Below, in pieces: positions 83-924 of a DNA stretch of 64,000 bases (position 1 is the first letter of the stretch; the number at the start of each line of letters is the position of its first letter). Position numbers and translations under genes: made by a program. Origin of the DNA: an uncultured Candidatus Rokubacteria bacterium (GTDB lineage Bacteria > Methylomirabilota > Methylomirabilia > Rokubacteriales > DASRDR01); assembly GCA_963826115.1 (NCBI GenBank), contig CAWGVS010000005.1, positions 928,001 through 992,000 of the forward strand, in the 5' to 3' direction. The notes beneath the pieces are model-generated. The model saw only the letters and a program-made list of their open reading frames with translations. It did no database searches and was not told where the DNA came from.

Positions 83-205
83 CTAGGGGTTGTCGGCGGT
101 GATGTCGAAGCCCGCGTAGAGGATCTCTTGCTCGAGCTCCTCGGGCGTGAGGACGCGCTCGACGCGCGGACGCTCGTACTCGGGTGCGGCGGGCGCCTCG
201 GTCAT
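83..205 (-). CDS. Putative RiPP precursor peptide, copy 1 (MTEAPAAPEYERPRVERVLTPEELEQEILYAG-FDITADNP)
   Basis: 40-aa ORF, ATG at 205 with GAGG RBS upstream, TAG at 83-85; leader nearly identical to three neighbouring copies; YxxPxV motif. Confidence 0.8.
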   Translation of the reverse strand: MTEAPAAPEYERPRVERVLTPEELEQEILYAGFDITADNP

Positions 206-285
206 GGCGTCATGCCTCAAGGCGTTGCGGAACCGTGCTCTCCGCGAGGCCCCGGACGACCTCACGGAGCAGCCCCATCGGCCGG

Positions 286-408
286 CTACCCCTCACCGTC
301 GACGCTGTTGTCGCCTGCGTAGAGGATCTCCTGCTCGAGCTCCTCGGGCGTGGGGACGCGCTCGACGCGAGGGCGCTCGTACTCGGGTGCGGTGGGCACC
401 TCGGTCAT
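286..408 (-). CDS. Putative RiPP precursor peptide, copy 2 (MTEVPTAPEYERPRVERVPTPEELEQEILYAG-DNSVDGEG)
   Basis: Translated by hand (absent from the ORF track); ATG at 408 with GAGG RBS, TAG at 286-288; same leader with an L19P change. Confidence 0.8.
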   Translation of the reverse strand: MTEVPTAPEYERPRVERVPTPEELEQEILYAGDNSVDGEG

Positions 409-488
409 GGCGTCATGCCTCAAGGCGTGGCGGAACCGTGCTCTTCGTGAGGCCCCGGACGGCCTCGCGGAGCGGCCTCATCGGTCGG

Positions 489-614
489 CTAGCCGTCGCC
501 GTCGATGCTGTTGTCGGTGCCGGCGTAGAGGATCTCTTGCTCGAGTTCCTCGGGCGTGAGGACGCGCTCGACACGCGGGCGCTCGTACTCGGATGCGGCG
601 GGCGTCTCGGCCAT
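489..614 (-). CDS. Putative RiPP precursor peptide, copy 3 (MAETPAASEYERPRVERVLTPEELEQEILYAG-TDNSIDGDG)
   Basis: 41-aa ORF, AGGAGG RBS upstream of ATG at 614, TAG at 489-491. Confidence 0.8.
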   Translation of the reverse strand: MAETPAASEYERPRVERVLTPEELEQEILYAGTDNSIDGDG

Positions 615-694
615 GGCGTCATGCCTCCTGGCGTGGCGGAACCGTCTTGTCCGTGAGACCCCGGGCGACCTCGCGGAGCGGCCCCATCCGCTGG

Positions 695-817
695 CTAGCT
701 GTCGCCGACGACGCTGTTGTCGCCGGCGTAGAGGATCTCCTGCTCGAGTTCTTCGGGCGTGAGGACGCGCTCGACACGCGGGCGCTCGTACTCGGATGCG
801 GCGGGCGTCTCGACCAT
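695..817 (-). CDS. Putative RiPP precursor peptide, copy 4 (MVETPAASEYERPRVERVLTPEELEQEILYAG-DNSVVGDS)
   Basis: 40-aa ORF, AGGAGG RBS upstream of ATG at 817, TAG at 695-697. Confidence 0.8.
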   Translation of the reverse strand: MVETPAASEYERPRVERVLTPEELEQEILYAGDNSVVGDS

Positions 818-876
818 GGCGCAAGACCTCCTGGCGCGAGTGGACCCGGAGTCTCCGTGAACACCAACGACTGCAG

Positions 877-882
877 ATTTTA
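877..882 (-). promoter_or_regulatory. Candidate -10 element (TAAAAT) for the peptide array
   Basis: Only AT-rich patch upstream of copy 4, about 60 nt before its ATG; no clear -35. Confidence 0.45.
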
Positions 883-924
883 CCCCAGGCGCGGGCCCGG
901 TGGCCCGGAAAGATCCGCGCACCG

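Follow-up and report, generated by a model that had tools for sequence, protein, structure and literature searches.

A tandem array of four putative RiPP precursor genes in a Candidatus Rokubacteria genome and a distant PqqD, kinase and radical SAM cassette that may process their products

Four small genes in tandem

The window analyzed in this study is a stretch of 64,000 nucleotides (C5:928001-992000) from a Candidatus Rokubacteria genome. On its minus strand lie four tandem ORFs of 40, 40, 41 and 40 aa at positions 83-205, 286-408, 489-614 and 695-817. A sequence-only reading of this DNA had described four ORFs of 40-41 aa, each with a ribosome-binding site, a constant leader and its own tail, and we saw them as described. 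The front common to the four peptides is EYERPRVERV[L/P]TPEELEQEILYAG. They are near-identical over 32 residues up to YAG, after which each continues into a differing acidic tail of 8-9 residues, and Cys, Trp and Tyr are absent from all four tails. The features of the array are as follows.

83..205, minus strand: precursor copy 1, 40 aa, tail FDITADNP (family profile, E 1.3e-21)
83..85 and 203..205, minus strand: stop codon TAG and start codon ATG of copy 1 (read from the sequence)
206..285, minus strand: spacer from copy 2 to copy 1, 72 of 80 bases the same as in the next spacer (unit alignment)
215..218, minus strand: GAGG ribosome-binding site of copy 1, 9 nt before the ATG (read from the sequence)
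286..408, minus strand: precursor copy 2, 40 aa, tail DNSVDGEG, carrying Leu19Pro (ORF translation)
418..421, minus strand: GAGG ribosome-binding site of copy 2, nine bases before the ATG (read from the sequence)
489..614, minus strand: precursor copy 3, 41 aa, tail TDNSIDGDG (ORF translation and family profile)
624..629, minus strand: AGGAGG ribosome-binding site of copy 3, nine bases before the ATG (read from the sequence)
695..817, minus strand: precursor copy 4, 40 aa, tail DNSVVGDS, first gene of the array (best family score, E 1.4e-22)
827..832, minus strand: AGGAGG ribosome-binding site of copy 4, nine bases before the ATG (read from the sequence)
818..924, minus strand: unique upstream region of the array, unlike the internal spacers (sequence and unit alignment)

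The remark that the automatic ORF track misses copy 2 and over-extends the others was also accurate: from its furthest start copy 2 is 45 aa long, and over-extension brings copies 1, 3 and 4 to 60, 111 and 75 aa, respectively. The promoter of the array probably lies in 818..924, where the sole AT-rich hexamer is TAAAAT at 877-882. A consensus scan of positions 1-1400 returned no sigma-70 promoter and no intrinsic terminator, which says little for this phylum. Hairpins in the spacers were considered as a feature and rejected, as they fold no better than shuffled sequences (z -1.6, -0.2 and +0.4).

The array is real and under selection

When aligned, the four units of roughly 203-206 bp had a mean column identity of 87%. 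Across codons 9-32 of the four copies there were 8 variable codons, 7 with synonymous changes only and 1 non-synonymous, giving a pS of 0.12-0.35 against a pN of 0-0.018. That all but one of the eight codons varying in the conserved block do so silently shows selection on these genes at the protein level.

With its repeat period of about 203 bp, the array could be misassembled from short reads, and none of the matched public contigs covers it in full, so that it might be taken for a tandem repeat without coding function or for an artefact of assembly. However, short contigs of 100% identity from other public soil and rhizosphere runs, one of which may be the sample of origin, cross the junctions between copies 1 and 2 (53-315) and between copies 2 and 3 (286-537), that is, two of the three internal junctions. 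The substitutions are also codon-aware, the family has 783 members in public data, and six sister genomes carry tandem arrays of 3-6 copies. We find the artefact explanation hardly credible, and the four-gene array is confirmed as a real feature. A single 217-nt contig from an RNA library covers positions 415-616; at about 93% identity it derives from a relative and is no proof that the array is transcribed, and RNA libraries can hold DNA. Stretches of the array that no matching contig covers carry no weight either way.

The peptide family

A profile search of public data returned 783 proteins at E <= 0.01. Each of the best 120 of these is named 'hypothetical protein' and lacks any Pfam domain. 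The four window peptides and six paralogues likewise matched no Pfam or NCBIfam family, even with the E-value limit relaxed to 10 or 1. Within the same genome, tblastn located paralogues at C5:241 kb (4-5 copies), C5:625 kb and C12:700 kb. The last two are single strays whose neighbors include no cassette-type modifying enzyme, and they were rejected as cassette sites.

Ten residues (Y10, E11, P13, R14, E16, T20, E27, Y30, A31 and G32) are invariant in all ten members from this genome. In a comparison of 56 members, E26, A30 and G31 are invariant, and the Y, the P and the hydrophobic position of the YxxPxV motif are invariant or nearly so. All four window copies contain YERPRV, which fits the leader motif [Y/W]xxPx[L/V/I]. 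The residue that is Pro19 in copy 2 is Leu or another hydrophobic residue elsewhere, and Pro occurs there in none of the best 120 of the 783 homologues. Identity between the window leaders and those adjacent to the enzyme cassette described below is only 49-59%. Because conservation extends to YAG, the boundaries that we give to 'leader' and 'core' are presumptive.

The tails behave differently. Among the best 120 homologues there are 114 distinct tails, which bears out the earlier description of a constant leader followed by a hypervariable tail. These tails are 4-16 residues long (median 8), and all 120 contain Ser or Thr, the first one falling at tail positions 1-5 in 119. Asp makes up 19% of their residues, Lys and Arg are rare, most aromatics are avoided, and Cys occurs once in total. 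The window tails likewise have no Cys, and the view that the peptides fit neither lanthipeptides nor sactipeptides was upheld.

An enzyme cassette 683 kb away

A genome-wide search for four families found no PqqD, HprK-related kinase A, NTP_transf_5 or Radical_SAM hit in C5:928001-992000, so the claim that no maturase is visible in the 64 kb holds for these families. The maturase had been expected either past the left edge or elsewhere in the genome; the second place proved right (C5:241 kb), and the first did not, with none in 20 kb. Those 20 kb, whose contents were judged not to be a maturase, hold a TPR protein, DUF1989, an alcohol dehydrogenase, DUF1007/NicO, a cyclase and a two-component pair, as well as a bufferin-type set (DUF2282, MbnB-DUF692 and DUF2063) with its own precursor. 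The closest radical SAM gene lies 22 kb to the left and was set aside, being of the B12-binding type with no RRE nearby. Neither the left 20 kb nor the genome-wide PqqD search yielded a PqqD or RRE gene linked to the array itself.

The cassette spans C5:241371-245604 on the same contig, about 683 kb from the array. Four to five paralogous precursors are followed by a PqqD-type protein (PF05402, E 8e-15), an HprK-like P-loop kinase with an intact Walker A motif, and a 740-aa fusion in which Radical_SAM and NTP_transf_5 lie in one frame and CxxxCxxC is present. A comparison of 23 fusion proteins (45-80% identity) showed no variation in the three radical SAM Cys, in four other Cys or in the transferase DxD. 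We found no studied example of a radical SAM-nucleotidyltransferase fusion in the literature.

The best solved relative of the radical SAM half is YydG/EpeE (E 1e-27), with YydG aligned over its whole length, including the auxiliary-cluster region; PqqE is also among the solved relatives (E 1.5e-9). The fusion scores 76.3 bits against the YydG-family model TIGR04078, whose cut-off is 300, and the curated NCBIfam matches of all three cassette enzymes fall below their cut-offs. The second Cys of the YydG Cys-Cys pair aligns with Asn in 19 of the 23 fusion sequences (Asn232), and the fusion family conserves another Cys at position 217/218. In EpeE the H-atom donor is Cys223, according to the available text of PMC13012085; it may correspond to the Cys aligned with Asn232, subject to the tag offset in the deposited chain.

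Within the genus, the flanks of the cassette are syntenic and about 82-94% identical. They comprise an aminotransferase, a polysaccharide deacetylase, an SDR, an ECF sigma factor and a carboxyltransferase. As they are missing from distant contigs, we treated them as neighborhood and rejected them as parts of the pathway. The Pfam hits of flanking genes in its own genome, sister genomes and distant contigs included no peptidase or exporter conserved beside the cassette, and in the same three settings the cassette has neither a lasso B2 peptidase nor an asparagine-synthase-like cyclase.

This is not the only PqqD locus in the genome. The genome-wide search gave 8 hits at about seven loci. One is the cassette at C5:241 kb and one a canonical lasso cluster; the others include about five more PqqD clusters, and in most of them an HprK-like gene adjoins glycosyltransferase or NTP_transf_5 genes. 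Leader similarity suggests that the window peptides belong to the C5:241 kb cassette.

The conserved block itself, and not the tail, could be the part that is modified, given the conservation up to YAG. By analogy with PqqE and MftC, whose targets are conserved Glu/Tyr or Val/Tyr pairs, the radical SAM domain would act on the invariant Glu27 and/or Tyr30, which shortly precede Ala-Gly, to give a small cofactor-like or signaling product, and the tail would be a disposable follower. The invariance of E27, Y30, A31 and G32 in the ten own-genome members, and of E26, A30 and G31 in the 56, agrees with this idea. The PqqD partner with a radical SAM enzyme is the layout of the PQQ and mycofactocin pathways, a PqqE relationship is detectable at E 1.5e-9, and the lack of a conserved peptidase or exporter is shared with intracellular cofactor pathways. 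However, multi-copy precursors with 114 distinct tails in 120 are unusual for a cofactor, and the tails are constrained, with Ser or Thr in every one and Lys, Arg, Cys and most aromatics avoided. The spacing here is E-x-x-Y, whereas the PqqA motif is E-x-x-x-Y, and the E-value of the epimerase YydG is better than those of the other solved relatives by at least twelve orders of magnitude. We therefore regard modification of the conserved block as unlikely and keep the tail as the probable substrate.

Linkage between the peptides and the cassette

Twelve metagenome contigs were examined, of which eight were informative, having DNA upstream of the cassette, and seven distinct (L054 and L055 are near-identical). 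One or two family peptides lay directly upstream of the cassette in all eight informative contigs. The fusion enzyme was 44-55% identical in five of the seven distinct contigs, and GC content of the distant cassette contigs ranged from 51% to 72%. A full-length fusion of 50% identity is also listed under the name of a cultured Synechococcus strain. A PqqD gene followed the family members in seven of the eight (tblastn missed one in L059), as it follows the paralogous array at C5:241 kb. The earlier identification of the leader motif as one of the type bound by PqqD-like recognition elements was also upheld. A PF05402 gene also follows the peptides in L036, L037, L041, L042 and L043.

Among 14 other genomes of the genus, the fusion was present in 8, all of which also carried the peptides, and both were absent from 4. 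The remaining 2 had a peptide hit without the fusion; one of these genomes is 68% complete, and in the other the hit covers 15 residues (E 1.6e-4). As the genomes of the genus are closely related, co-occurrence within it does not count as independent evidence. Taken with the distant contigs, a consistent association with modifying enzymes, on which the sequence-only reading had staked its RiPP interpretation, was found in 8/8 informative contigs and 8/8 fusion-bearing sister genomes.

The lasso cluster at C6:115 kb, with a PqqD B1 protein, a transglutaminase-like B2 and an asparagine-synthase-like cyclase, offers another possible route, in which the window peptides would be lasso precursors. 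The genome does contain this cluster, the leader has the YxxPxV motif, and taking Gly32 as the first core residue would place an Asp or Glu 7-9 residues further on in all four copies. The nearest named ESM Atlas clusters are also lasso leader families, although a score of 0.85 makes this a lead only. However, a ring of 7-9 residues leaves 0-3 residues, too few for a threaded tail; Thr is missing at position -2, where the leader ends in Tyr-Ala; and in 8/8 informative distant contigs the family adjoins the cassette with no cyclase or B2 seen. Because the cassette has no cyclase or B2 peptidase, the window peptides do not fit lasso peptides either, and we consider maturation by the lasso cluster very improbable.

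Precursors separated from the cassette are not peculiar to this genome. Stray copies were found in G238, G243 and G244, and the one in G244 lies about 1.1 kb from an orthologue of the glutamate dehydrogenase gene that neighbors the window array. G242 has only a leaderless remnant beside its cassette and five peptide matches elsewhere, four of which read as intact precursors. This bears on whether the window copies might be duplication relics that the cassette does not process, either drifting paralogues or decoys that titrate the recognition protein. The 683 kb between array and cassette with no local enzyme, the Leu19Pro change at a conserved site of copy 2, and the difference between window and cassette-adjacent leaders would all suit relics. 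Against this, purifying selection on the copies is strong (pN 0-0.018 versus pS 0.12-0.35), and start codons, ribosome-binding sites and the ten invariant residues are intact in 4/4 copies. Intact strays are common in sister genomes, and in G242 they are the only intact precursors found. Relics thus seem quite improbable, more so than modification of the conserved block.

Proposed pathway

We believe that the window genes are genuine, translated RiPP precursors served in trans by the cassette 683 kb away, and we put the probability of this at roughly three in four. In the pathway that we propose, the PqqD protein would first bind the invariant YExPR[VI]E of the leader and hand the peptide to the enzymes. 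A Ser or Thr of the short acidic tail would next be phosphorylated by the kinase, and the nucleotidyltransferase domain would then add onto the tail phosphate. Finally, the radical SAM domain may make a radical change, either an epimerization or a cross-link. The window array would enlarge the set of tails processed in trans by a single cassette. The genes, the selection on them, the family and its conserved linkage to the cassette are established, whereas binding in trans, the order of these steps, the residues modified and the chemistry of the product are inferences.

The first step was modeled by co-folding the cassette PqqD protein with window copy 3. The score was 0.60 (runs 0.60, 0.57 and 0.60), compared with 0.01 for the best of three controls, with a partner pLDDT of at least 59 and contact agreement between runs of at least 89%. 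Of 157 solved complexes 116 reach the mark used, as do 2 of 215 mismatches; a score of 0.60 or lower was seen for only 18 of the 157 solved complexes and for both passing mismatches. As complexes of recognition proteins with leaders have already been solved (TbiB1; LppB in the available text of PMC13381572), the score may reflect likeness alone. The co-fold lends weak support to the binding in trans that we propose.

Several points count against the trans pathway. Copy 2 carries Pro where other members conserve a hydrophobic residue. Identity between the window leaders and those beside the cassette is no more than 49-59%, in a genome with several other PqqD clusters. Since the genes around the cassette include no conserved peptidase or exporter, the release of the core is not accounted for; for the same reason, the product might remain attached to the leader or act inside the cell.

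Genes of 40 aa escape automatic annotation, and cluster finders confined to the neighborhoods of enzymes would never tie this array to a pathway 683 kb off. One enzyme set may serve scattered precursors, and one sister genome appears to keep none intact beside its enzymes. The pathway is present in several bacterial groups, and its product is unstudied. The cross-phylum cassette, with its three enzyme genes and short substrates, gives a testable system.

Comparison with known systems

The closest published systems are LPP (2026) and the phosphorylated lasso peptides. LPP is the lppA-K-B-S-D-N cluster of Paenibacillus alginolyticus (Popov et al., Nat Commun 2026, PMC13381572), in which, as far as the available text describes it, LppK attaches multiple phosphates to a single Ser of a linear peptide. 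Both LPP and our cassette have a discrete PqqD-type protein, an HprK-like kinase and an uncharacterized NTP transferase, and a lasso cyclase is found in neither. Both also have one to several precursors with a conserved YxxPxV N-terminal part and highly variable C termini. In contrast to that account of LPP, the transferase here is the C-terminal half of a fusion with a YydG-like radical SAM domain, and counterparts of the SpI-type peptidase (LppS) and the MsbA-like exporter (LppD) were not found among the genes flanking the cassettes. The LPP leader reads YxxPxVLxHQxIxFETxxS, whereas ours shares YxxPxV only and continues with E-R-V-L-T-P...L-x-R-E-I-L-Y-A-G; the tails here have 4-16 residues and the LPP core has 45.

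In the available text of PMC9266682, the phosphorylated lasso peptides paeninodin and pseudomycoidin also combine an HprK-like kinase with a nucleotidyltransferase-like enzyme (PsmK and PsmN in pseudomycoidin). PsmK phosphorylates the peptide and PsmN adds hexoses to the phospho-Ser. There, as proposed here, a PqqD-type B1 protein recruits the peptide via a [Y/W]xxP leader motif and the enzymes target a Ser of the peptide. Unlike these systems, our cassette lacks both a B2 peptidase and a macrolactam cyclase and has an added radical SAM domain, and its tails are too short to form a lasso. The radical SAM half of the fusion resembles the enzyme of the epipeptides YydF/YydG, also called EpeX/EpeE (PDB 8ai1-8ai6; available text of PMC13012085 and PMC5682303), but here the domain is fused to a nucleotidyltransferase and partnered by a PqqD protein and a kinase, and the precursors are unrelated to YydF.

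The pairing of PqqD with an HprK-like protein is also known from two NCBIfam systems, HPr-rel-A (TIGR04352 kinase and TIGR04353 PqqD) and the SynChlorMet cassette (TIGR04248 and TIGR04249). Their models are the best or near-best curated matches, at 33.3 bits for the PqqD protein and 58.6 bits for the kinase; these scores lie under the cut-offs of 35 and 200, which places both proteins outside those equivalogs. A full-text search found no paper joining 'TIGR04352' and 'HprK-related kinase'. The available text of PMC7470986, PMC12710340 and bioRxiv 10.1101/2023.03.08.531785 holds no description of the cassette or the leader, and the supplement of PMC13381572 might list related clusters.

The suggestion that the array belongs to an undescribed RiPP class must be narrowed, as the toolkit has precedents in the phosphorylated lasso peptides and in LPP as far as PMC13381572 describes it; what stands is that the leader differs and that a radical SAM fusion is present. 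It is about an even call whether the cassette represents an undescribed, multi-phylum class, in which the fused enzyme, the kinase and the PqqD protein would make small radical-modified phospho-(nucleotidyl or glycosyl) peptides and stray libraries would be matured in trans. The substrates of such a class would be acidic Ser/Thr tails of 4-16 residues on an almost invariant 24-residue leader. Unlike LPP as described in that source, the hosts here are Methylomirabilota and other non-Bacillota phyla, and a peptide-phosphorylation toolkit first characterized outside lasso peptides in 2026 thus reaches non-Bacillota soil phyla.

Precursor genes in the window

The source genome is 6.24 Mb in 12 contigs, and the window (C5:928001-992000) carries four tandem precursor genes at its left end.

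Precursor genes of the window array
83-205, minus strand: copy 1, ORF of 40 aa, tail FDITADNP
286-408, minus strand: copy 2, ORF of 40 aa, tail DNSVDGEG
489-614, minus strand: copy 3, ORF of 41 aa, tail TDNSIDGDG
695-817, minus strand: copy 4, ORF of 40 aa, tail DNSVVGDS

The four peptides share EYERPRVERV[L/P]TPEELEQEILYAG, and GAGG or AGGAGG can be read 9 bases 5' of the ATG in every copy. The array units are approximately 203-206 bp long, with a mean column identity of 87% in the alignment of the four units; because the region upstream of copy 4 is unique, copy 4 is the head of the array. When codons 9-32 of the four copies were compared, eight codons were variable, seven of them by synonymous changes only and one by Leu19 to Pro in copy 2 (pairwise pS 0.12-0.35, pN 0-0.018). 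Such synonymous-biased variation is the pattern of translated, constrained genes and not of a non-coding repeat. Codon 19 of copy 2 (within 286-408) encodes Pro; at this position Leu or a different hydrophobic residue is found in copies 1, 3 and 4 and in the 120 homologues listed, and the substitution may weaken the binding of the recognition protein. That the window copies are decaying or decoy copies is, in our opinion, improbable. The chance that the array is an artefact is negligible: the junctions of copies 1/2 and 2/3 were bridged at 100% by contigs of other public soil or rhizosphere runs, one of which may be the source sample of the genome.

Upstream of copy 4 the sequence is GC-rich, and its one AT-rich hexamer is TAAAAT (877-882, minus strand), approximately 60 nt before the ATG of copy 4. 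This hexamer is a possible -10 element, not called in the consensus promoter scan. Positions 415-616 of the window are covered by a 217-nt contig of a soil RNA library, approximately 93% identical; three bases are missing from the contig, so that it lacks the extra codon of copy 3. The contig represents a copy from a relative, and as a hint of transcription it is weak at most.

The peptide family

Searches of Pfam and NCBIfam with the peptides found no family. In the same genome, tblastn detected paralogues in three places: C5:241371-242159, with four clear copies in tandem plus a fifth, weak one; C5:625 kb; and C12:700 kb. Y10, E11, P13, R14, E16, T20, E27, Y30, A31 and G32 were invariant in all ten own-genome copies, and a profile built from these ten matched 783 proteins at E <= 0.01 among 2284 candidates. 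The 120 listed of these 783 matches were all unnamed or "hypothetical protein", none with a Pfam domain, and their consensus was YEPPR[VI]ERVLTPxxLEREILYAG followed by a tail. Among these 120, the tails were 4-16 residues long (median 8), 114 of them distinct, and composed of 19% Asp, 12% Thr, 11% Ser and 10% Pro; Cys occurred once in total, and Lys or Arg in 14 tails. Every one of the 120 tails contained Ser or Thr, the first lying at tail positions 1-5 in 119.

The candidate modifying-enzyme cassette

The sequence-only reading had found no maturase in the window, and this was borne out for the four enzyme families searched: PqqD, HprK-like kinase, NTP_transf_5 and Radical_SAM gave zero matches inside it. 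The same reading placed the maturase past the left edge or elsewhere in the genome. The 20 kb left of the window contained no candidate, which speaks against the first location; the second is supported by three enzyme genes that come directly after the C5:241 kb paralogous array in the same orientation, approximately 683 kb from the window array on the same contig.

Enzymes of the cassette at C5:241 kb
3' of the array, same strand: PqqD protein, 96 aa (PF05402, E 8e-15)
Same strand: HprK-like protein with an intact Walker A motif
Same strand: fusion protein, 740 aa, radical SAM domain (CxxxCxxC) plus NTP_transf_5 (PF14907, E 2.5e-27)

The radical SAM half aligned over the full length of YydG/EpeE, a peptide epimerase (8ai1-8ai6), auxiliary-cluster region included, at E 1e-27, but it fell below the curated YydG cut-off (76 vs 300 bits). 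The cassette proteins also matched the curated HPr-rel-A and SynChlorMet models, but under their cut-offs. Among 23 fusion proteins with 45-80% identity, the conserved positions comprised the transferase Asp-x-Asp, all three radical SAM Cys, four more Cys and an additional one located at 217 or 218.

Several other loci were recorded. About five more PqqD clusters are present in this genome (C1:41-45 kb, C9:31-35 kb, C12:797 kb, C6:833 kb and C12:369 kb), most with an HprK-like gene adjoining GT2 glycosyltransferase or NTP_transf_5 genes; no obvious YxxP small ORF was seen in these clusters. Two pairs of NTP_transf_5 matches, at the end of contig C9 (C9:33730-35603) and the start of C12 (C12:649-2522), have identical scores, lengths and spacing, and are probably the same DNA assembled twice or a contig overlap. 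Left of the window, L001:4893-6847 (window -15107 to -13153) encodes a DUF2282 small protein, an MbnB/TglH/ChrH (DUF692) enzyme and a DUF2063 partner, near CopD-cytochrome c, CusF, a two-component pair and a peroxiredoxin fragment. We take this copper-linked RiPP set to be of the bufferin type; the set includes a precursor of its own and does not seem related to the window peptides.

One canonical lasso cluster (PqqD, transglutaminase-like B2 and asparagine-synthase-like cyclase) lies at C6:115 kb. It is highly improbable that the window peptides are lasso precursors for this separate cluster, as their tails are too short, the leader has no Thr at -2 and a cyclase is missing from the cassette.

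Linkage of the peptides to the cassette

The family was found in 12 of 251 genomes of the phylum, source genome included: in 10 of 14 other genomes of the genus and one of three in another genus. The fusion enzyme occurred in eight of the 14 sister genomes, all eight with peptides, and four sisters (71-98% complete) lacked both. G233 (68% complete) had one peptide and no detected enzyme, and the sole peptide match in G239 was 15 residues long (E 1.6e-4). Tandem precursors, 3-6 in number, lay just upstream of PqqD, kinase and fusion in six of the eight (G235, G237, G238, G240, G243, G244). The G240 fusion gene (C9:83804-85918) falls into four frame pieces and contains one TGA, as a result of either pseudogenisation or assembly error, and in G234 the contig ends within the kinase gene. 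Because these genomes are close kin, the counts overstate independence, and the test outside the genus is stronger.

When metagenome contigs were scanned with the alignment of fusion proteins, 80 loci were obtained, 13 of which (L053-L065) matched the fusion itself; the other 67 matched only the radical SAM N-terminal part at 24-41% identity. Twelve of the 13 were examined, leaving out L062, which starts inside the fusion. Four contigs (L053, L056, L060, L065) end short of the expected precursor position, and all eight others (L054, L055, L057, L058, L059, L061, L063, L064) carry one or two family peptides directly upstream. Since L054 and L055 are near-identical, the eight represent seven distinct loci, five of which have a fusion only 44-55% identical to that of the source genome; the GC content of the distant contigs ranges from 51% to 72%. 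A PqqD gene was detected by tblastn in seven of the eight contigs. In the eighth (L059:799-2132), two precursors in overlapping frames lead straight on to the HprK-like gene. The recognition domain of this locus may be part of a fusion, may have diverged beyond detection, or may be encoded elsewhere. Named full-length fusions of 46-52% identity came from Binatia, Vicinamibacterales, a Synechococcus strain, Sumerlaeaceae and Abditibacteriaceae.

The flanks vary among the distant contigs (beta-lactamase-like gene, cupin, aldolase, ArsR, DinB); given the linkage, the conserved unit is therefore precursor(s), PqqD, kinase and fusion. No conserved peptidase or exporter was found among the flanking genes compared. 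This absence, together with the invariant Glu27 and Tyr30-Ala-Gly, is consistent with a PQQ- or mycofactocin-like pathway, where the conserved block would be the modified part and the tail a follower. We consider this unlikely, because the tails are constrained, Ser/Thr-bearing and multi-copy.

Precursors away from the cassette

Stray precursors are normal in the genus. Copies away from the cassette occur in G238, G243 and G244, the G244 copy approximately 1.1 kb from an orthologue of the glutamate dehydrogenase gene neighbouring the window array. The G242 cassette (L133:5147-5305, contig C13) retains only a leaderless remnant, a leader end with a DNS-type tail, between aminotransferase and PqqD genes. 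The five peptide matches of G242 are on other contigs or far away, and the four that were read are intact. This arrangement is the best indirect evidence that the cassette enzymes act in trans.

Proposed pathway and comparison with known systems

The data show that the genes exist, that selection acts on them, that they belong to a family and that this family is linked to the cassette. The steps of the pathway are inferred, with the tail as the probable site of modification. The PqqD protein would bind the YExPR[VI]E motif. Co-folding of the cassette PqqD with window copy 3 (alignments of 11 and 56 rows) scored 0.60, 0.57 and 0.60 against 0.01 for the best control, a verdict of weak support, although these scores may reflect likeness only, because such complexes have been solved (TbiB1; LppB, PMC13381572). 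The partner had a pLDDT of 59 or higher, and contact agreement between runs was 89% or higher. Of 157 solved complexes, 116 passed the mark, as did 2 of 215 mismatches; only 18 of the 157, and both of these mismatches, did so with scores <= 0.60.

The kinase would then phosphorylate Ser or Thr of the tail. As a precedent, LppK phosphorylates a single Ser several times in a linear peptide (PMC13381572), and PsmK is a second kinase precedent (PMC9266682). The transferase domain may build on the phosphate; a precedent is hexose addition by PsmN (PMC9266682), but LppN was inactive in the heterologous host (PMC13381572). The radical SAM domain may epimerise or cross-link.

Full-text searches of the literature turned up no account of this leader, nor of any peptide pathway with a radical SAM / NTP_transf_5 fusion. 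The closest published system is the family of linear polyphosphorylated peptides (LPP) of Bacillota (PMC13381572). Both LPP and the cassette have a recognition protein, an HprK-like kinase and an NTP transferase, without a cyclase. In contrast to the cassette, LPP has an SpI peptidase and an exporter, its leader motif is different and its cores are long; a radical SAM enzyme is absent from LPP, whereas the cassette encodes one.
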